NCBI GenBank assembly: GCA_039738415.1
Contig: JBCLLY010000004.1
Span: forward strand, 6,956 to 70,955
Direction: 5' to 3'
Source: Candidatus Levyibacteriota bacterium
GTDB lineage: Bacteria; Patescibacteriota; Microgenomatia; Levybacterales; GWA1-39-11
DNA: 64,000 bases
Every line of letters begins with the position of its first letter. Within the stretch, counting starts at the first letter, position 1. Below are positions 4,071 to 59,356 of this stretch, one piece after another. The notes under the pieces were generated by a model. The model did not search any database and was not told the origin of the DNA. It worked only from the letters and a program-made list of their open reading frames with translations. Position numbers and translations under genes: made by a program.

Positions 4071-4919
4071 ATGAGACAAATTACATTAGAAGAATTATTG
4101 TCAGTCGGTTGTCATTTCGGACACCAAGTAAATCGCTCAAACCCAAAGGCGAATCCATTTATTTTTGAATCCCGCGCAAATGTTCATATTATAGATTTAG
4201 AACAGACCCATAAAGGGCTGATTGAAGCAGCTGAATTTGTCAAAAGCTTGGCCCTTGAGGGAAAGACGATGGTAATAGTTGGAACTAAAAGACAAGCAAA
4301 ACAAGTTGTTGAAGAGCAAATTGAAAGAGCTCGCGTAGCAACGCCTGACTCTATTTTTTATGTAACTTCACGATGGGTTGGTGGAATTTTAACAAATTTT
4401 CCGGAAGTTTCTAAAAACTTTAAAAAGTTAACCGATCTTGAGAATCTTGTAACCACGGAAAAATCCCGAGAATACACCAAGCGTGAGCTTGCTTTGTTCG
4501 ATAGGAAAATCGCAAAACTTAAGAATTTTTATCAGGGAATTAGAGAGTTAAAAAACGCTCCCGACGCACTATTTATTATAGACACGCATTTTGAGAAAAC
4601 TGCTGTAAGTGAGGCAATTAGAGTAAAAATAAAAACAGCAGGAATTGTTGATACAAATGGTGACCCATCCAGCGTTACCTATGCAATTCCGGCAAATGAT
4701 GACGCGGTAGGTTCAATTGAACTAATTACATCATATATAGTTGATGCTTGGATAGAGGGAGCGAAACAATTAAAAGTTCAAAATGAAAAGTTAAAAGTTG
4801 AAGAAGAAAAAGTCGTACGGCCCGCTTCGACTCAGCGAGGCGAGCAAGCTCAGGATGCAACAGCGGAAATAAAAAAGACAAAGGAGAAGGAAGAGGCGAA
4901 GAAAGCGGACAGCGTATAG
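4071..4919 (+). CDS. rpsB: 30S ribosomal protein S2 with Lys/Glu-rich C-terminal extension
   Basis: LLSVGCHFGHQVNRSNPKANPFIF, IIDLEQT, DTNGDPS. I prefer ATG 4071 (MRQITLEELL), which has agaagga 5 nt upstream. The ORF-track start at 4017 adds 18 residues not typical of S2. Confidence 0.92.
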   Translation: MRQITLEELLSVGCHFGHQVNRSNPKANPFIFESRANVHIIDLEQTHKGLIEAAEFVKSLALEGKTMVIVGTKRQAKQVVEEQIERARVATPDSIFYVTSRWVGGILTNFPEVSKNFKKLTDLENLVTTEKSREYTKRELALFDRKIAKLKNFYQGIRELKNAPDALFIIDTHFEKTAVSEAIRVKIKTAGIVDTNGDPSSVTYAIPANDDAVGSIELITSYIVDAWIEGAKQLKVQNEKLKVEEEKVVRPASTQRGEQAQDATAEIKKTKEKEEAKKADSV

Positions 4920-12270: not shown

Positions 12271-12438
12271 TTGAAGAAGATGTTTGCCCGCCTAATTTCA
12301 GTGTTTGGCTCTCTTGTATTCTTTCCGCCAGAGGCGGACAGGCATACACGCCTCACACTTCAATTGAGCGGCGAGTTTAAGAATCTCTAGGTCCGATGAA
12401 CATCGGACAAGAGCTTCTAAAAAGGGAGGTGATAGTTT

Positions 12439-26157: not shown

Positions 26158-27849
26158 TCACTCTGTTCCGACAATTTTTATAGCCGGTTTTTTATCTATA
26201 AATGATATTTCATATAAAGCATCAGTGTCTTGCGGAAAACTTTTTGGCATTCCGACAAATAGAGTGTTTTTCAGCTCTTTATCCTTCTCCCAGTCTATCG
26301 GGCGGAATTCATATTTTTCAAATGAGCGATTTGCAATATCTATCTTAACCTCACGTTGATATTTCTCCGGAGGATATTTCAGGAAAAAAAGGTAAAAGAT
26401 ATATGATTGGTCAAAATACCCATCATTGGCAACAACAATTTTTTCGTACTCACTTGAAAGCTCTGTAGTCTTTTCTACTGCTTGTTTATACCCATACTGC
26501 CAATCGTGTGAAGCAAAATAATTTTGTTGTACAAAATACTGATTGAGGTAATATAAAAAATTAAAAATGAAAAGTAAAAAGATAAATATGATAATTAAAA
26601 ATTTAAAATACTTTATGCTTAATGCTTTATACTTTCCTCCAAAGGCGGACCAGCCTCTGGCTGGAATACTTGATACCAATCCCATCGCACTAATAAGCCC
26701 TAACGCTGTAAATATCTGCCAAGTCGGAAGGAAATTCAAAGTTCTGACGGCATGCGGTACTCCTGTCGAGAGAGAGGCGGGAATTGGTGCTAACAGAAAC
26801 CAGCTCAGAATAAGAATCTTTGTTGTCGTTTTAAAACGATGAAACAAAAGAGAATATAAGCCAATAAGAAGGAATGGCAACTCCCAAATATAAAGTATGC
26901 CCATCGCAGGAGCATGATGCCGCCCTATATCACCTTTTACAAATAACCAGTTGATATCCCAGTGTGAAAGATAATTTTCAACTATTCGGTTCGCATAGAA
27001 TACTCTTCTGTTATTAAGAACCTGACCGATAATGTCTCCGGTTTCTTTATTATGCTCCAATTCTATAACATTATTACTAAACTCCACAGACTGTTCGTTA
27101 AAGACACTCACCCCTTTTGCCCGTCCCAGAGTATTGCTATCCGTAACCAAAGAAAATACTAGAGGAAAACTAACTAAGATCCCAACAGTAAAAGCCAGAG
27201 CGAGATATTTTTTCTGCAAGGCAGCAAGAGCGCTAAAATAGATTACACAAAGACTCAGTACAAAAAGAGGCACAAAGACCTTTTCACTTTGGTAAGCATG
27301 CAGACTAAAACCAAAACTAATGGCGGAAAGCACCAGAAACCACGGGCGCTTTAAGCCTTTGAGAAAAAAGAGTACACCAAAAACATTTAATGCTAGCCCA
27401 AGATTTGCTTCAAATGCAACTCTTGATAACTGAATATGCCAAGGAGAGATGGCTAAAAGAAATGATGAAATTAAGGCTATATCACGTCGCCTAAAAAGTT
27501 CGTTTACCAAAAAATAGACTGCAAATACAGTAATAATTCCTAAAATTGCTGAAGGGAGTCTTACTGCAAAAATATTTAGACCAAATACAAATACTGAAGG
27601 AATAGCTATGTAACTGTACAACGCTGGCTTATAATCACCGAATGATTGCAAAATAATCGGGAAGACTTTTCCATATTCATCCCTTCCTGTCTGGAGAAGC
27701 GAATATGCATTATACCCCAAAGCTGCCTCATCCCAATTCGGAGAAGGTGGAACACTCCCCAGTTGCCAGAACCGTAATGCTCCTGCGAGAAGTACAATCA
27801 AAAAAATTAACAGAAACGATTTAATATTTTTCTTAATAAACATATGCAA
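26158..27849 (-). CDS. GT39/ArnT-PMT-like GT-C glycosyltransferase, paralog family B
   Basis: 563 aa. NWDEAALGYNAYSLLQTGRDEYGKVFPIILQSFGDYKPALYSY. Confidence 0.78.
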   Translation of the reverse strand: MHMFIKKNIKSFLLIFLIVLLAGALRFWQLGSVPPSPNWDEAALGYNAYSLLQTGRDEYGKVFPIILQSFGDYKPALYSYIAIPSVFVFGLNIFAVRLPSAILGIITVFAVYFLVNELFRRRDIALISSFLLAISPWHIQLSRVAFEANLGLALNVFGVLFFLKGLKRPWFLVLSAISFGFSLHAYQSEKVFVPLFVLSLCVIYFSALAALQKKYLALAFTVGILVSFPLVFSLVTDSNTLGRAKGVSVFNEQSVEFSNNVIELEHNKETGDIIGQVLNNRRVFYANRIVENYLSHWDINWLFVKGDIGRHHAPAMGILYIWELPFLLIGLYSLLFHRFKTTTKILILSWFLLAPIPASLSTGVPHAVRTLNFLPTWQIFTALGLISAMGLVSSIPARGWSAFGGKYKALSIKYFKFLIIIFIFLLFIFNFLYYLNQYFVQQNYFASHDWQYGYKQAVEKTTELSSEYEKIVVANDGYFDQSYIFYLFFLKYPPEKYQREVKIDIANRSFEKYEFRPIDWEKDKELKNTLFVGMPKSFPQDTDALYEISFIDKKPAIKIVGTE

Positions 27850-52939: not shown

Positions 52940-53007
52940 CGGCCCCATAGTTCCCGACGAATTCCATTCGTGCGGGATTCCGATAGAATAGCGTATCGGG
53001 ACTAGCG
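52940..53007 (+). other. 5' fragment of tRNA-Glu interrupted by a 50-nt double-hairpin insert
   Basis: cggccccatagt (52940-52951) equals 53258-53269. The insert spans 52952-53001 and folds into hairpins 52952-52977 and 52978-53001. ctagcg (53002-53007) equals 53270-53275. Confidence 0.6.
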
Positions 53008-53018
53008 ACAAAATTAAC

Positions 53019-53273
53019 GTGTATTTTACTTATATAATCAAAAGTTTAAAAAATGGTAAATACTATATAGGTAGTACTAACAATATTGAAAGAAGGGTTT
53101 CGGAACATAACACGGGTCATTCAAAATACACTAAGAATAAGGGACCATTTGAACTAGTATATAAAGAAGAATATAATACCAATTCGGAGGCAAAAAAGAG
53201 AGAATATTATTTCAAATCATTAAAAAGTAGTAAAGCAATTGAAAAATTAATACATTACGGCCCCATAGTCTAG
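53019..53273 (+). CDS. minimal GIY-YIG nuclease domain protein (YhbQ/COG2827-like)
   Basis: 84 aa with a GTG start. YFTYIIKS...KYYIGSTNNIERRVSEHN and EAKKREYYFKS. The stop codon TAG 53271-53273 lies 15 nt inside tRNA-Glu. Confidence 0.85.
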   Translation: MYFTYIIKSLKNGKYYIGSTNNIERRVSEHNTGHSKYTKNKGPFELVYKEEYNTNSEAKKREYYFKSLKSSKAIEKLIHYGPIV

Positions 53274-53330
53274 CGGTTAGGACACTTGGTTCTCATCCAA
53301 GAGACCCGGATTCGAATTCCGGTGGGGTCA
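53259..53330 (+). tRNA. tRNA-Glu (anticodon CTC)
   Basis: 72-nt manual cloverleaf. Acceptor ggcccca/tggggtc (one G-U pair), D-arm gtctagcggttaggac, anticodon arm cttgg-ttCTCat-ccaag, T-arm ccgga-ttcgaat-tccgg, discriminator A. No encoded CCA. Confidence 0.85.
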
Positions 53331-53496
53331 CCCTTCGACAGGCTCAGGATTTTACACTAAATATCTGAAGTACAAACGCATCTATTGCATTCACGCGGGT
53401 TCGCTATTCAGTAAGTACTATAGTATAATGATTATGGTTCTATACATTTTCTAATTCTCCCCGTTCTTGGAATTACAGTCTGTATCTCATCTCATT

Positions 53497-54548: not shown

Positions 54549-56945
54549 TTAATCTGCGGCGATTGGTTGCGGAACCTTTAGTTTTGATTCCTTCTCTCCT
54601 TGAATTTTCTTGAATCCCTCGATCGGTTTTGTTAAGGCCTCCTTCAGCACTTCATCCATATGCGATGCGAATACAAAACGTAAGTCTTTTGCTACTTCTT
54701 TCGGAATTTCCTCCAAATCTTTTCTATTCTCTTTGGGTAAAATTAACGTTCGTATTCCGGCACGATGGGCTGCAATCACTTTTTCTTTTACTCCACCAAT
54801 TTCAAGTATTCTTCCCCGAAGCGTAACCTCTCCAGTCATTCCCACCATTCTATTTACGGGAATTTTAGTTAGAGCTGATACTATTGCGGTAGTTATAGCT
54901 CCTCCTGCAGACGGTCCGTCTTTGGGGACAGCGCCTTCCGGAACATGTACATGAACATCTATAGTTCTATAAAAATTCTCATCAAGCCCAAATTTATTTG
55001 CGCGGGCGCGAATATAAGTCAATGCCGCCTGACAGCTTTCTTTCATAACATCACCTAACTGTCCAGTCAGAACTAGCTGACCTTTTCCGGGCATAAGTGC
55101 TACTTCTATAAATAGAATTTCTCCACCAACCTCTGTCCAAGCAAGACCGGTACTCATCCCTATTTCGTTTTTCTTCTCAGCCAGGGTTGAGGTATATCTC
55201 GCTGGTCCCAAAAACTTTTTAATATTTTTTTCTGTTACTTCCATTTTCTTTTTCTTTCCCTCAGCCACATTCCTGGCAATTTTTCTAAATACTTTTGCTA
55301 TCTCACGCTCTAGGCTTCTAACACCGGCCTCCCTGGTATATCTTTGGATTATATACTGCAGTGCTTTATCAGAAATCTCCACATTGTTACTTTTTAGTCC
55401 ATTTGCTTCAAGCTGTTTTTTTACTAAATATTTTTTTGCTATGTGAAATTTCTCTTCGCTTGTATATCCTGCAAAGTTAATTGTCTCTAACCTATCGCGA
55501 AGTGCAGGTGGAATGGTGTGTAAAAGATTTGAGGTTGTAATAAACATAACATCTGATAAATCAAACGGTACTTCTAAATAATGGTCTGAAAACGCATTAT
55601 TTTGCTCCGGATCTAATGCTTCCAAAAGCGCAGAAGATGGATCTCCCCTATAATCTGCTCCCACCTTATCTATCTCGTCAAGCATAAATACGGGATTATT
55701 TGTCTTTGCATCTTTTATTCCCAGAATAATTCGTCCCGGCATTGCTCCCACATAAGTTCTTCTATGGCCTCTTATTTCTGCCTCATCATGGATACCACCA
55801 AGAGACATTTTTACAAATTCACGTCCTAATGCTTTTGCAATTGACTTTCCTATAGAGGTTTTGCCTACCCCAGGAGGTCCATTAAAACACAAAATTGGTC
55901 CTTTCATTTTGCCTGATAATTTATGAACCGCCAAATACTCAATGACTCTCTCTTTTACCTTGTTTAATCCGTAATGTTCTTCGTCCAGAATTTTTTCAGC
56001 GTCTTTAAGCTTAATATCGTTTTTACTCTTCTCGCTCCAAGGGAGTCCTACAAGCGTCTCCAAATAATTTCTTATGTACCCAGATTCGGGATTGTATGGA
56101 GTAAGCTGTTGAAGTTTCTTAAGCTCTTTTCTGGCCTTTTCTTCAACGTCCTCAGGCATTTTTGCTTTCTTTATCTTATCCTGTAACTCTTTTATCTCAC
56201 CTATATCATCGCCTTCACCCAACTCTTTCTCAATACTCTTAAGTCTTTCGCGTAAGATAGCATCCTTTGTAGTCTTTTCAAACTTTTCCTGAGTTCTATT
56301 CGTAATTCTTCTTTCAAGTTCCAAAACTTTTACCTCACGGGATAAATATTCTGATACTTTCTCTAGCCTTTTTTTCACTTCAAAAATTTCCAATATCTCC
56401 TGCCTTTCGCTTCCTTTAATATCCAACGTTGAGGCTATTTGATCTGCAAGTTCCGCCGGATTTATGTCAGACATTATATTCATAAAGACTAAAAAGTCCG
56501 CCTGTTTTCCTAAACTTAATGATTTCTTAAATAATGAAGTTACGTGATTCATAAGCGCAGTCATTTCATCACTTTGTGTAATAGTCTCCTCTATCTCTTC
56601 CAAAACAGCCTCCAGGTGTTCTGCTGATTGGTTATAACTCACAATTCTTGCCCTTGAAATCCCCCTTACTAATGCATTTACCTCGCCATCAGATCTAATC
56701 ATACGCTCAATGTGCGCAATTGTTCCCACTTCATAAAGCTCAGTAAGATCCGGATTATTTTGCCTAGGGTTTTTTTGAAGCACGAAACACACAAGCCTTT
56801 CGCCTGTAAAAGCGTTTTCAAGCGCTGCAAGACTTTTGGGTCTGCCGAAGGTCAAAATTGACTCCGTATGTGGAAATACTATCCCGTCCCGGATAGGTAT
56901 TACAGGCACATGCTGCAGGTTAGAATCGGATCTTTTTGGTATCAT
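54549..56945 (-). CDS. lon: ATP-dependent Lon protease (LonA)
   Basis: 798 aa. N-terminal VPVIPIRDGIVFPH, Walker A GPPGVGKTS, and the protease motif VPKDGPSAGGAITTAIVS. Confidence 0.95.
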   Translation of the reverse strand: MIPKRSDSNLQHVPVIPIRDGIVFPHTESILTFGRPKSLAALENAFTGERLVCFVLQKNPRQNNPDLTELYEVGTIAHIERMIRSDGEVNALVRGISRARIVSYNQSAEHLEAVLEEIEETITQSDEMTALMNHVTSLFKKSLSLGKQADFLVFMNIMSDINPAELADQIASTLDIKGSERQEILEIFEVKKRLEKVSEYLSREVKVLELERRITNRTQEKFEKTTKDAILRERLKSIEKELGEGDDIGEIKELQDKIKKAKMPEDVEEKARKELKKLQQLTPYNPESGYIRNYLETLVGLPWSEKSKNDIKLKDAEKILDEEHYGLNKVKERVIEYLAVHKLSGKMKGPILCFNGPPGVGKTSIGKSIAKALGREFVKMSLGGIHDEAEIRGHRRTYVGAMPGRIILGIKDAKTNNPVFMLDEIDKVGADYRGDPSSALLEALDPEQNNAFSDHYLEVPFDLSDVMFITTSNLLHTIPPALRDRLETINFAGYTSEEKFHIAKKYLVKKQLEANGLKSNNVEISDKALQYIIQRYTREAGVRSLEREIAKVFRKIARNVAEGKKKKMEVTEKNIKKFLGPARYTSTLAEKKNEIGMSTGLAWTEVGGEILFIEVALMPGKGQLVLTGQLGDVMKESCQAALTYIRARANKFGLDENFYRTIDVHVHVPEGAVPKDGPSAGGAITTAIVSALTKIPVNRMVGMTGEVTLRGRILEIGGVKEKVIAAHRAGIRTLILPKENRKDLEEIPKEVAKDLRFVFASHMDEVLKEALTKPIEGFKKIQGEKESKLKVPQPIAAD

Positions 56946-56948
56946 GGA

Positions 56949-56975
56949 TTAGCAGTGTAGCAAATCATTTGCTAA
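56949..56975. promoter_or_regulatory. CIRCE-like inverted repeat immediately upstream of lon
   Basis: ttagcagtg-tagcaaatc-atttgctaa (9-9-9) compared with CIRCE TTAGCACTC-N9-GAGTGCTAA. The outer TTAGCA/TGCTAA arms match. An inner perfect palindrome tagcaaat-c-atttgcta spans 56958-56974. The element ends 4 nt from the lon ATG. Confidence 0.35.
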
Positions 56976-57228
56976 CTGTCAATACTCTCTAGTTTGAAGT
57001 AGTTTATCTGAATTATAACTAGGTGTCAAGGATACCCAAACGCCCTCAAATAGACAAATTAATTACTACTATTTTTTTTATTTTAAATGCATCATAATTA
57101 TTCTTGCGCGAATAATCGCAGGAATGTGGAGCTCAAATATTTCCGTTGCGCAAGGTGGCACGCCTTAACTCAAATGCTTAAAAATTCTATCATTTAAATC
57201 TCTTCCGTTGGCTTTAATATTAACTCTT

Positions 57229-57237
57229 TGGTATAAT
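57229..57237 (+). promoter_or_regulatory. extended -10 promoter driving the tRNA-Gln-fragment / GIY-YIG / tRNA-Gln unit
   Basis: tggtataat (TGnTATAAT). The predicted transcription start is about 5 nt before the first nucleotide of the tRNA-like fragment. Confidence 0.55.
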
Positions 57238-57249
57238 TTGAGTCTACAT

Positions 57250-57323
57250 TGCCGGATAGCCTAATGATAGCCAGCGCTTACAGCGCGGTCTCGCCCTAAG
57301 GCGATGAGACAACGGGTTCTGAA
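57250..57323 (+). other. tRNA-Gln-like 5' half (acceptor 5' strand to anticodon loop) carrying a 37-nt D-arm insert
   Basis: tgccggatagcctaatgatag + ccagcgcttacagcgcggtctcgccctaaggcgatga + gacaacgggttctgaa. Compare the intact tRNA tgctggatcgtctaatggtag + gacaacggattctgga. The insert is identical to that in the units at 57655-57874. Confidence 0.6.
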
Positions 57324-57335
57324 ATTGTTTAATAT

Positions 57336-57578
57336 ATGTTTGCTACCTATATACTTAAAAGTCAGACTAAGGAATGGTATTACATAGGTCATACATCAAA
57401 CATTGAAAATAGATTAAAAGAACATAATATGGGTAGAAGCAAATCGACCAAACCATATATGCCACTTGTACTAAAATACAAAGAAGATTTTAATACAAAA
57501 GGCGAAGCGTTCAAAAGAGAGCAACAAATTAAGAACTACAAGCATGGAGAAGCATTTAAGAAATTGATTGGTATCTAG
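57336..57578 (+). CDS. minimal GIY-YIG nuclease domain protein (YhbQ/COG2827-like)
   Basis: 80 aa. FATYILKS...WYYIGHTSNIENRLKEHN and EAFKREQQIKN. The stop lies 3 nt before tRNA-Gln. Confidence 0.85.
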   Translation: MFATYILKSQTKEWYYIGHTSNIENRLKEHNMGRSKSTKPYMPLVLKYKEDFNTKGEAFKREQQIKNYKHGEAFKKLIGI

Positions 57579-57581
57579 GGC

Positions 57582-57652
57582 TGCTGGATCGTCTAATGGT
57601 AGGACAACGGATTCTGGATCCGTTTATCTAGGTTCAAATCCTAGTCCAGCAG
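57582..57652 (+). tRNA. tRNA-Gln (anticodon CTG)
   Basis: 71-nt manual cloverleaf. Acceptor tgctgga/tccagca (U1-A72), D-arm gtct-aatggta-ggac, anticodon arm acgga-ttCTGga-tccgt, T-arm ctagg-ttcaaat-cctag, discriminator G. Followed by cc. Confidence 0.85.
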
Positions 57653-57654
57653 CC

Positions 57655-57768
57655 GTAGATACGAGTCGTCTAATGGTAGCCAGCGCTTACAGCGCGGTCT
57701 CGCCCTAAGGCGATGAGACAACGGATTCTGGATCCGTTTATCTAGGTTCAAATCCTAGTCCAGCAGCC
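57655..57768 (+). repeat. 114-bp tRNA-Gln-like tandem unit B (D-arm insert, no complementary 5' acceptor strand)
   Basis: gtagatacgag, then tRNA-Gln nt 8-22, then the 37-nt insert (57680-57716), then tRNA-Gln nt 23 to the 3' end plus cc. The 7 nt in the acceptor position (atacgag) cannot pair with tccagca. Confidence 0.8.
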
Positions 57769-57874
57769 GTAGATACGAGTCGTCTAATGGTAGCCAGCGC
57801 TTACAGCGCGGTCTCGCCCTAAGGCGATGAGACAACGGATTCTGGATCCGTTTATCTAGGTTCAAATCCTAGTC
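57769..57874 (+). repeat. tRNA-Gln-like tandem unit C (second copy, divergent 3' end)
   Basis: Identical to unit B through cctagtc (57874), then diverges (tcccagctcagtccc), so the 3' acceptor strand is lost. Confidence 0.8.
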
Positions 57875-57993
57875 TCCCAGCTCAGTCCCTAACAGGCGGG
57901 GACATGTTTATTGGGGTTTTAAACCGCTATGCTCAGCAAAAAAAATAGCCTTGAAAATTAGAACCGAACGCCAGTTCAAACCTTTTTTGCTAC

Positions 57994-58001
57994 TGTATAA
58001 T
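57994..58001 (+). promoter_or_regulatory. extended -10 element upstream of the helicase gene
   Basis: tgtataat, 23 nt before ATG 58025. Confidence 0.45.
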
Positions 58002-58024
58002 AACATTAGAAAATACTATTTTTT

Positions 58025-59356
58025 ATGACACAACAAGAAGCCTTTGACTTACTAAAAATGGGGCATAATGTTTACCTAACCGGCGCGGCAGGCAGTGGAA
58101 AAACATACTTATTAAACAAATACATCGGGTTCCTAAAAAATAAGAAGGTTGGAGTAGGTATTACTGCCTCAACTGGGATTGCCGCAACACACATGAATGG
58201 TCGGACTATCCATTCATGGTCCGGAATGGGTATTAAAGATGCGCTAACTAAGGAAGATCTCAGTAAGCTTCTTGCCAAGCGGTATCTCCGTAAGACTTTC
58301 GCCGAGGCAAAGGTGCTTATCATTGATGAAATTTCCATGCTTCACTCTTTTCGTCTGGATATGGTTGATAGAATTTGTAAGGCGTTCAAAGAAAGTACAT
58401 TACCCTTTGGAGGAATACAAGTTGTTCTCTGCGGAGACTTTTTTCAATTACCCCCGGTAAGCAAAAATGGTGAGGAAGCAAATTTTGTCCATAAATCAGA
58501 TATTTGGCAAGAAATGGATATTAAAATCTGTTATCTTGAGGAACAGCACCGGCAGGAAGATAAACCGTTTTTACAAGTTCTGAATGATATAAGAAGCAAT
58601 ACTGTAAGCGATACGACAAAACAGTCCTTAAACAGCCGGCATAACAAAGAGGTTGCAATTGATATTCCACCAACAAAACTATTCACCCATAATGCAGATG
58701 TTGACGCTATCAACAACATGGAACTGGAAAAGATTAAGAAAGAACCACAAATATACCAAATGTCATCAAGAGGCATTGACGCGCTCGTTGAAACATTAAA
58801 GAAAAACTGTCTAGCCCCCGAGCAATTAATTCTTAAAAAGGGAGCAGTTGTCATGTTTGTCAAAAATAACTTTGAGAAAGGATATGTGAATGGAACACTT
58901 GGAAAAGTGGCGGGCTTTGATAAAGAGAGTTACCCGATTATTGAAACTGTCTCAAAAGATAAAATTATTGCTATGCCTGAAAAGTGGACAATAGAGGAAG
59001 GAAACAAAATTATTGCGGAAATTAATCAAATACCGCTCCGCCTTGCTTGGGCGATCACTGTTCATAAAAGCCAAGGAATGAGCCTTGACGCGGCAGTTAT
59101 TGATCTTTCCAAAGCATTTGAGCCGGGGATGGGGTATGTTGCTCTATCAAGGGTGAGAACTCTTGTTGGAATAAAACTGTTAGGTATCAATGACACTGCA
59201 TATGAGGTAAGTGCTGAAGCGATAGAACTGGACAGACAACTTATCAATCTTTCAAAACATGAAGAAAATAATCTCAAAAATCTAGGATGGTTGGAAAAAC
59301 ATAAAAGGCAAAATCAGTTTATCGGAAGTATAACCCCCAAAAAAGTAAAGACTTAA
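58025..59356 (+). CDS. Pif1/RecD-like superfamily-1 DNA helicase
   Basis: 443 aa. Walker A LTGAAGSGKTYLL, motif II LIIDEISML, LCGDFFQLPPV, and the C-terminal AWAITVHKSQGMSLD. Confidence 0.88.
   Translation: MTQQEAFDLLKMGHNVYLTGAAGSGKTYLLNKYIGFLKNKKVGVGITASTGIAATHMNGRTIHSWSGMGIKDALTKEDLSKLLAKRYLRKTFAEAKVLIIDEISMLHSFRLDMVDRICKAFKESTLPFGGIQVVLCGDFFQLPPVSKNGEEANFVHKSDIWQEMDIKICYLEEQHRQEDKPFLQVLNDIRSNTVSDTTKQSLNSRHNKEVAIDIPPTKLFTHNADVDAINNMELEKIKKEPQIYQMSSRGIDALVETLKKNCLAPEQLILKKGAVVMFVKNNFEKGYVNGTLGKVAGFDKESYPIIETVSKDKIIAMPEKWTIEEGNKIIAEINQIPLRLAWAITVHKSQGMSLDAAVIDLSKAFEPGMGYVALSRVRTLVGIKLLGINDTAYEVSAEAIELDRQLINLSKHEENNLKNLGWLEKHKRQNQFIGSITPKKVKT

Follow-up and report, generated by a model that had tools for sequence, protein, structure and literature searches.

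Two tandem tRNA-Gln-like units follow an intact tRNA-Gln gene in the window (the whole 64,000-nt stretch of DNA analysed here; all features described below lie on its + strand). They are probably the displaced 3' part of an outer tRNA-Gln gene, left behind as recombination debris of a homing-endonuclease-like cassette that replaces the tRNA it interrupts. This reading starts from what can be observed directly: the anatomy of the locus, its recurrence in relatives, the variation in the number of units, and the covariation of a helix formed by the leader and trailer of the intact tRNA.

Two incomplete tRNA-Gln units behind an intact gene

The initial annotation of this DNA had described two 114-bp tRNA-Gln-like units directly after a tRNA-Gln gene. 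Tandem Repeats Finder bore this out, reporting a single array (57603-57874) with a period of 114, 2.4 copies, 100% matches and a score of 544. Each 114-bp unit consists of an 11-nt linker (gtagatacgag), found by direct reading in front of both units just as first described, and the tRNA sequence from nt 8 through to the 3' end, its D stem holding a 37-nt insert. The gene ahead of them is an intact tRNA-Gln(CTG) (57582-57654), identified by ARAGORN and scoring 64.1 bits in Rfam, and is hereafter called the inner tRNA. It has a U1-A72 pair, and CCA is not encoded. This was the one tRNA-Gln that ARAGORN and Rfam called at the locus; ARAGORN takes the first copy only, and not the two units, which we name B and C.

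Unit B (57655-57768), delimited by repeat analysis (families D2 and D3), is made up of the linker (57655-57665) and nt 8-22, then the insert (57680-57716), then the rest of the tRNA from nt 23 onward. Its 3' acceptor strand is of the inner-tRNA type (tccagca-gcc), and we read the unit as a recombinant duplicate. Unit C (57769-57881), which we read from sequence and repeat analysis as the ancestral 3' remnant of the outer gene, begins with the linker (57769-57779) and nt 8-22, continues with the insert (57794-57830) and both the anticodon and the T arm, and closes with an acceptor-like strand. Unit C had been thought to lose its 3' acceptor strand; what stands at 57873-57881 is a different acceptor-like strand, tctccca-g-c, identical to the 3' end of the 3' unit at the related locus L002 and to that of the intact tRNA-Gln at L128. 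Its 5' partner, tgggaga, was not found near the locus.

Units B and C are not tRNA genes. Against the Rfam tRNA model RF00005 they reach 26.1 bits, below the gathering score of 29, with only model positions 9-63 aligned and with a substitute D arm supplied by the insert (GUCU, 15 nt, AGAC). They have no 7-bp acceptor stem; nt 1-7 are replaced by the linker, which is unable to pair with either tccagca or tctccca. The earlier description of the units as non-canonical tRNAs therefore stands. Their anticodon and T arms are both intact, with canonical loops (anticodon ttctgga, T ttcaaat).

The insert itself, CCAGCGCTTACAGCGCGGTCTCGCCCTAAGGCGATGA, is a 37-mer present in three exact copies in the 64-kb window, at 57271, 57680 and 57794, with none expected in shuffles. 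It separates the two G residues (22/23) in the 3' strand of the D stem, a placement that is unambiguous on direct reading and agrees exactly with the position first assigned to it. It is a pair of neighbouring GC-rich hairpins, set in a genome whose GC content is 36%.

A GIY-YIG gene lies between the pieces of the outer tRNA

Upstream of the inner tRNA is the 5' fragment of a diverged tRNA-Gln(CTG)-like gene, running from nt 1 to the anticodon loop (57250-57323; repeat family D1, 92% identical to the units). This 5' fragment has the acceptor strand tgccgga and carries the insert at 57271-57307. A promoter-driven 5' half at 57250 had already been proposed, and the fragment is confirmed behind a promoter-like site at 57208-57237 (TTGGCT, an 18-nt spacer and TG-TATAAT; consensus match only). 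The implied transcription start is at about 57245, just upstream of the fragment, and in relatives, too, a -10-like box directly precedes the 5' fragments.

Between the 5' fragment and the inner tRNA lies an ORF of 80 aa (57336-57578) encoding a GIY-YIG nuclease (Pfam PF01541, E = 6e-15). The initial annotation overlooked this ORF as the organising feature of the locus, and also the leader-linker helix described below. The ORF product is a catalytic domain on its own, of the UPF0213 / Slx1-like type (for the family background, see PMC1564403). The closest solved chains, 1ywl and 1zg2, are both UPF0213, and the solved UPF0213 relatives of the ORF are 96-107 aa long. The catalytic domain fills the 80-aa ORF, with no separate DNA-binding domain in it, and a group I intron endonuclease model scored far below its cut-off against this protein. 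We know of no homing in the UPF0213 family. Exact-protein look-ups of the window's helicase and GIY-YIG protein found no record; the ORF homologues that we collected are numbered P0001-P0035.

The linker that follows the inner tRNA is complementary to the leader that precedes it. Positions 57566-57588 and 57645-57667 are complementary over 23 nt (87%), lengthening the acceptor stem of the inner tRNA to about 23 bp. The leader arm of this extension (57566-57581; inverted repeat I1) runs across the final codons of the ORF and its stop codon. The linker had been noted for its inability to pair with the 3' acceptor strand; no such pairing exists, and the linker is complementary to the tRNA leader instead. 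Over five loci the leader-trailer helix has 14 pairs, five of them with a compensatory change, and 91% of cells are paired. This set includes L012, where the leader is non-coding. Such covariation indicates that the helix, and hence at least part of the linker, is under selection.

A terminator-like hairpin lies at 57885-57903 (consensus match only). Since this is the first such site after the promoter, the units probably share a transcript with the ORF and the tRNA.

The layout recurs in related lineages

We reached relatives through the GIY-YIG homologues and their contigs, and through pattern scans. The same order of elements (promoter, insert-bearing 5' tRNA-Gln fragment, GIY-YIG ORF, intact tRNA-Gln, short trailer, insert-bearing 3' remnant) recurs in a further six metagenomic lineages that are relatives of Levybacteria (Patescibacteria), represented by the loci L001, L002, L057, L126 (the same locus as in L012, L131 and L138), L128 and L149-L152. 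Their GIY-YIG homologues are 43-76% identical. Of the contigs involved, L012 bears the label Candidatus Levybacteria and L057 the label Patescibacteria; Lon/NUDIX synteny ties the window to L001, and NUDIX ties L001 to L012. These labels and the synteny point to the lineage of the window.

The loci differ in how much of the outer gene is found on each side. In L001, the 5' fragment extends to about nt 34 and one 3' unit begins at nt 10, both with the insert, and the outer acceptor strands match perfectly (tgccgga/tccggca). L002 has a 5' fragment to about nt 40 and one 3' unit from nt 8, again both with the insert, and its strands do not match (tgccggt/tctccca). At L057 only nt 1-11 make up the 5' fragment, followed downstream by one insert-bearing 3' unit, with perfectly matching strands (tccgggg/ccccgga). 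L126 has nt 1-65 upstream, with inserts in the D stem and the T loop, and the 3' acceptor strand only downstream; the match is again perfect (tgccgag/ctcggca). At L149-L152 the 5' fragment bears the insert and the 3' piece is the T arm and acceptor strand only, with a T-loop hairpin. No 3' remnant is present at L128, which has a 5' fragment with insert, or at L147, whose 5' fragment carries its hairpin modules elsewhere; in L130 the 5' fragment and the ORF can be followed as far as the contig end.

The break point of the outer gene thus varies, from about nt 11 in L057 to nt 65/66 in L126, with overlapping pieces in the window, L001 and L002. In L001, L057 and L126 the outer acceptor strands differ from those of the inner tRNA; in L149-L152 they are the same as in the inner tRNA and are thus uninformative. 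The inner tRNA has the anticodon CTG in L001 and L147, and TTG in the other relatives' tRNA-Gln loci. A single 3' unit is present in each of L001, L002 and L057, the three relatives with the same trailer-then-unit junction as the window.

Homologous ORFs (56-63% identity) are arranged alike at tRNA-Tyr loci, each with a 5' fragment carrying GC hairpins. There are no 3' units in L144, one in each of L142 and L143, and at least three in tandem in L139-L141. L144 and L142 encode an identical protein, so the number of units varies between strains. The initial annotation took freely varying copy number as a mark of debris, and this range between strains points in that direction. The tRNA-Tyr arrays also break assemblies, with runs of N in L139 and L140 and a contig end within the array in L141. 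These arrays, which BLAST revealed, escaped Tandem Repeats Finder owing to a first copy with a different T arm and to the N runs in the scaffolds.

The presence of the ORF also differs in a single comparison: the tRNA-Leu/tRNA-Pro spacer is 309 nt long with an ORF in L002, and 67 nt without one in L012. Our search for an empty site (a syntenic tRNA-Gln without the ORF) found none. The pattern scan of genome contigs, with a gap of N{5,35}, was too loose: among the matches listed, the true ones were L012, L035 and L057, and the rest were GC-rich chance matches. A tighter pattern applied to metagenomes gave a small number of true loci (L126, L128, L130, L131, L132 and L138), with a bias toward those with an invariant hairpin 2. 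The pattern scan of a viral collection gave no match.

Conservation and dispersal of the insert

To place the parts of the locus on a common scale, we compared identities across four loci (the window, L001, L002 and L057). Identity is at background in the 100-nt flanks (45-53%), compared with 69-76% for the ORF and 82-90% for the inner tRNAs. The tRNA-like part of the 3' units is 65-78% identical. The insert reaches 81-97%, on par with the functional tRNA and above the ORF. In five 3' units from four loci, the anticodon, T and insert stems are 100% paired, and both partners have changed in six of the pairs. That the arms of the remnants are intact may reflect selection, or outer genes that were functional until a recent insertion.

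Across the tRNA-Gln fragments the site of the insert is constant (22/23), and the insert is well conserved there. Hairpin modules also occur elsewhere: in the D loop and anticodon loop of L147, and in the T loops of L126, L132 and L149. A comparison of strains found an extra hairpin at nt 6-9 in L149 and L152 that is absent from L150, and the insert of L152 carries SNPs, one of which breaks a stem. Within the window, a GC-rich double-hairpin copy of the same type as the inserts in the tRNA fragments lies at 26639-26663; it matches the T-loop insert of L126, with 0 such matches expected by chance, and sits within an ORF of the PMT family, apparently in frame. Taken together, the modules at other positions, the polymorphism and the copy at 26639-26663 mark the insert as a member of a dispersed, polymorphic family of hairpin elements. 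Its conservation means that it is either selected or recently spread. It could be a recognition, regulatory or processing element, or simply a mobile hairpin.

Origin of the units

The reading that we favour would run as follows. An outer tRNA-Gln gene would have been interrupted by a selfish cassette without a promoter of its own, consisting of a small GIY-YIG ORF and a complete replacement tRNA-Gln, the latter flanked by the leader-trailer helix. The cassette would be driven from the promoter of the interrupted gene, and the inner tRNA would maintain the cell's supply of tRNA-Gln. The broken outer gene would survive as an upstream 5' fragment and a downstream 3' remnant, both with the GC-rich double hairpin in the D stem. 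The ancestral state at this locus would be a single 3' remnant, unit C, as in L001, L002 and L057. Unit B would be recent, produced by unequal homologous recombination or replication slippage, with nt 23-67, a stretch identical in the inner tRNA and the remnant and lying in register 114 bp apart, as the substrates. The left part of unit B (linker, nt 8-22 and insert) would then come from the remnant and its right part (tccagca-gcc and linker) from the inner tRNA. The composition of unit B is an exact match to this prediction, and we infer that a crossover origin would account for everything about it.

Several further observations fit this reading. The inner tRNAs are more alike than the outer 3' parts (82-90% vs 65-78%), as would be expected if the tRNA travels with the ORF, and the ORF found in one tRNA-Leu/tRNA-Pro spacer and missing from the other fits mobility. 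Among the explanations first put forward for the units, footprints of insertion or recombination is the best supported, given that the nested layout recurs, that the number of units varies, and that unit B has the make-up of a crossover product. By analogy, the ORF would move by homing, and some specificity of the nuclease and some role of the insert may likewise be presumed. However, the nuclease is a bare 80-aa domain without a DNA-binding domain, and the remnants look undecayed, their stems being fully paired with compensatory changes. Nor would pure debris predict the conservation of the insert, and the covarying leader-trailer helix speaks against this reading too, as do the failure to find an empty site and the mismatched outer 5' and 3' acceptor strands of the window, whose history must include more than one event.

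The matching acceptor strands of some relatives invite a different reading, in which the outer pieces form a functional split tRNA-like RNA. The 5' acceptor strand would pair with the 3' unit, and the resulting outer cloverleaf would enclose the ORF and the inner tRNA, a topology resembling that of tmRNA or archaeal split tRNAs. Once RNase P and RNase Z had freed the inner tRNA, the outer pieces would cooperate, and they could serve as a scaffold for processing or stability, as a site of CCA addition, or even as a two-piece tRNA. The outer acceptor strands of L001, L057 and L126 are indeed lineage-specific as well as perfectly complementary, those of L001 and L057 being related by three compensatory double changes, and the site of the large insertion coincides in all three with a junction between helices of the outer cloverleaf (nt 7-10 or 65/66). 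When the whole L057 transcript is folded, both the MFE and the centroid structures are closed by the outer acceptor stem (z = -4.15). The full pairing and compensatory changes in the arms of the 3' units would fit as well, as would the finding that no terminator-like site lies ahead of the end of unit C. All the same, complementary strands are equally explained by outer genes that were intact until a recent insertion. The suggestion, made at the outset, that the units are 3' halves in need of a 5' half finds support in the complementarity at these three loci but not in the window, where tgccgga pairs with tccagca of unit B at 6/7 positions and not at all with tctccca of unit C; L002 is mismatched too. 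The simple forms L128, L147 and L144 have no 3' unit whatsoever, the D stem is split by the insert, the hairpins are polymorphic with stem-breaking SNPs between strains (L152), and a fold of unit B by itself has no unusual stability (z = -1.9). We consider a functional split RNA unlikely. In its general form, namely that Patescibacteria have functional nested or split tRNA-like genes in which an outer tRNA-Gln-like fold surrounds a nuclease mRNA and a working tRNA, the idea seems to us quite unlikely. The outer pieces, including the D-stem double hairpin, may in that case act as a two-piece RNA, whether a scaffold, a partner or recognition element of the GIY-YIG protein, or a bacterial split tRNA.

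It is improbable that the segment that the 5' fragment and the 3' unit have in common (nt 8-38 and the insert) is an att-like block of homology, that is, a recombination site through which a small circle of ORF and tRNA enters and leaves an insert-bearing tRNA-Gln in the Campbell manner, the array being a record of repeated integration. Overlapping direct repeats such as Campbell-type integration predicts do occur in the window, L001, L002 and L142, and the insert is the best conserved segment outside the tRNA, as expected for a crossover or recognition site. However, L057 and L126 lack the overlap, the junctions sharing just 2-5 nt, and no intact insert-bearing tRNA-Gln was seen among the true matches listed in the collection scans. 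We also found no integrase or recombinase among the ORFs of the 52-64 kb part of the window, and only the 11-nt linker separates unit B from unit C, with no second cassette there. Att-like arrays had been among the earlier suggestions; the description is right in a loose sense only, given that no integrase is nearby and that the units abut without an element between them. A simpler explanation for the second copy, which we find similarly doubtful, is that it is an assembly artefact: short-read assemblers can miscount perfect 114-bp repeats, and the true number of units may be one, or it may exceed two. The copies show 100% identity, and the tRNA-Tyr arrays described above (N runs in two scaffolds, a third ending inside its array) illustrate the difficulty. 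Yet the B/C junction and the junction of C with the downstream DNA are distinct and internally consistent, and C ends unlike B. Such an artefact would touch the copy number only; the 3' remnant itself is confirmed by the relatives.

Comparison with known systems

The mobile endonuclease ORFs (mORFs) of fungal mitochondria, which create gene hybrids (Allomyces atp6; Glomus atp6, atp9, cox2 and nad3) (PMC3630166), are a close precedent and resemble the present locus in that an endonuclease ORF is inserted in a host gene together with a replacement for part of that gene. The displaced native part stays adjacent, in mORFs often co-transcribed, and presence varies among close relatives (PMC3630166). 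Unlike in mORFs, the host gene here is a bacterial tRNA gene, replaced by an entire tRNA that follows the ORF; remnants are possible on both sides, there are GC hairpin inserts, the nuclease is a bare 80-aa UPF0213-type domain, and its mobility is presumed.

Phage T4 SegB offers a looser parallel. We know of no nested or partial tRNA copies that accompany it. It is a GIY-YIG gene among tRNA genes and is tied to the preferential inheritance of the tRNA region (PMC2330249), but it is larger and site-specific, its cleavage has been demonstrated, and it lies between intact tRNA genes (PMC2330249). Another likeness is found at tRNA-Thr of Caldiarchaeum subterraneum, where a 5' fragment lies upstream of an inserted element and an intact or intron-bearing tRNA downstream of it; this disruption has been proposed as a route to split and intron-containing tRNA genes (PMC3293823). 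Unlike the cassette described here, the element is 1.8 kb long and encodes a recombinase (PMC3293823).

The tandem units themselves recall a bacterial case that Rossi et al. (Cell, 1981) are said to have described at E. coli tyrT, where 178-bp tandem repeats each contain the 3' end of tRNA-Tyr. There, too, tandem units after a tRNA gene repeat its 3' part, are attributed to unequal recombination and are co-transcribed; unlike here, each unit has about 19 nt of tRNA, and there is no nuclease ORF, 5' fragment or hairpin insertion. The halves of archaeal split tRNAs are joined via bulge-helix-bulge splicing, and we know of no such splicing machinery in bacteria. AT-rich genomes are known to harbour GC-rich palindromic or double-hairpin elements, such as the GC clusters of yeast mitochondria, the double-hairpin elements of Allomyces and the Rickettsia palindromic elements. 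The insert resembles these in form, being built of paired GC-rich hairpins that are dispersed and strain-polymorphic, with one copy apparently in frame in a protein gene (26639-26663). It is unlike them in its constant site in tRNA-Gln fragments (22/23) and in being unusually well conserved.

Our literature searches turned up no account of a GIY-YIG ORF lodged inside a tRNA gene alongside displaced tRNA fragments that bear hairpins, and the layout appears to be undescribed so far. The tandem duplication itself is ordinary; it is the surrounding architecture that is noteworthy and worth a systematic survey. The UPF0213-type GIY-YIG family is widespread. If the reading that we favour is true, its genes would include selfish cassettes that colonise the tRNA genes of ultra-small bacteria and bring a replacement tRNA with them, much as mitochondrial mobile ORFs supply new gene ends. 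This would explain some of the broken assemblies and odd tRNA-like fragments met with in genomes of Patescibacteria. It would also provide a model, bacterial and still active, of the events that split, nest or interrupt tRNA genes, a question so far studied mainly in archaea. The finding draws attention to a family of GC-rich double-hairpin elements in these genomes as well. For annotation, the units are better labelled tRNA-Gln remnants than genes, and the conserved insert and the covarying leader-trailer helix provide testable handles on function.

A second cassette and the wider window

We also considered several known types of element. A group I intron in the tRNA was rejected: Rfam found none in 56000-59000 at E up to 10 and none window-wide at gathering thresholds, and the spacers around the ORF are just 2-30 nt. 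The tRNA introns of Patescibacteria, which are group I introns at 35/36 (PMC13011429), are a different phenomenon. A tmRNA, two-piece forms included, was rejected as well, with none called window-wide by ARAGORN or Rfam. Besides tRNA, Rfam found nothing, which excludes known ribozymes and known tRNA-like families. The absence of an integrase likewise led us to reject a classical integrative element, and an attL/attR duplication of the integrase type was rejected for the same absence of a recombinase in 52-64 kb and for the gap of only 11 nt between tRNA and unit. The LonA and two-component system genes of the window identify its lineage as bacterial.

A profile search of all ORFs in the window found exactly two GIY-YIG ORFs. 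The window also has two tRNA genes, and each of the ORFs lies directly upstream of one of them. The second ORF belongs to another cassette of the same kind at tRNA-Glu(CTC) (52941-53332), this one without a 3' unit. It begins with the first 11 nt of tRNA-Glu (52941-52951), followed by two hairpins (approximately 52952-53002), the GIY-YIG ORF (53019-53273; PF01541, E = 8e-20) and the intact tRNA-Glu(CTC) (53259-53332). The two GIY-YIG ORFs of the window are 53% identical.

A second cassette, at tRNA-Glu(CTC)

The window holds a second cassette, at tRNA-Glu(CTC) (52941-53332). Its GIY-YIG ORF (53019-53273) is preceded by a copy of nt 1-11 of tRNA-Glu(CTC) and by two hairpins, and at its 3' end this ORF runs into the first nucleotides of the intact tRNA-Glu (53259-53332). 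A 3' unit, that is, a remnant copy of the tRNA downstream of the intact gene, is absent from this cassette.

GIY-YIG ORFs and 3' units at other tRNA genes

Among the loci of relatives, at least three tandem units of about 72 nt follow tRNA-Tyr(GTA) in L139 (1749-2080), L140 and L141 (1749-1949), where the tRNA itself sits behind a GIY-YIG ORF. All of these units cover the tRNA from its anticodon loop to its 3' end, and the hairpin gtcccgccggggcgggac stands in place of the T arm. In this region the scaffolds contain runs of N, and one contig stops within the array.

Two further tRNA-Tyr loci, L142 (1755-1950) and L144 (1548-1640), encode an identical GIY-YIG protein. In L142, a 3' unit is present and an unusual T loop (GGTGCAAATCC) is found in tRNA and unit alike, whereas in L144 the T loop is canonical (GGTTCGAATCC), a terminator is present and the 3' unit is missing. 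This difference suggests gene conversion between unit and tRNA-Tyr.

In the tRNA-Leu/tRNA-Pro spacer of L002 (1453-1761, 309 nt), an 87-aa GIY-YIG ORF lies between small flanking hairpins; the corresponding spacer of L012, a Candidatus Levybacteria locus, is 67 nt long (4377-4443) and has no such ORF. The record containing L002 and L035 (CAZWMJ010000005.1) is titled uncultured Gammaproteobacteria. However, this bin label may be wrong, because the tRNA-Gln cassette of this locus and its tRNA-Leu/Pro/Gly cluster are shared with a Levybacteria contig.

Hairpin variation

At tRNA-Gln, a 34-nt GC hairpin (gcccgcctgcatcgctatgcgaagcattgcgggc) occurs at about nt 6-9 of the 5' tRNA fragment in L149 and L152 but not in L150; the ORF downstream is identical in these three samples despite this difference. 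The D-stem insert of L152 carries two SNPs. L132 contains a 3' unit of tRNA-Gln(CTG) (1204-1080, minus strand) that has both the D-stem insert, within which the contig starts, and a 39-nt T-loop hairpin. The sequence 3' of this unit (gtattccctatttagcttga) is also found in L001.

GC hairpins also occur elsewhere. A GC-rich double hairpin (CCAAAGGCGGACCAGCCTCTGGCTG, window 26639-26663) shares about 83% identity with the T-loop insert in the outer 5' tRNA-Gln fragment of L126 and lies inside a PMT-family glycosyltransferase ORF (26158-27849, minus strand). It is apparently in frame, read as PARGWSAFGG, and calls to mind the Rickettsia palindromic elements. A single GC hairpin (TTCCGCCAGAGGCGGAC, window 12321-12338), similar to the second module of the D-stem insert, lies upstream of a repetitive, proline-rich ORF starting at about 12440. 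Upstream of tRNA-Thr in L141, an unrelated 61-nt tandem repeat (1006-1262; 4.2 copies, 92% matches) has a GC hairpin inside it.
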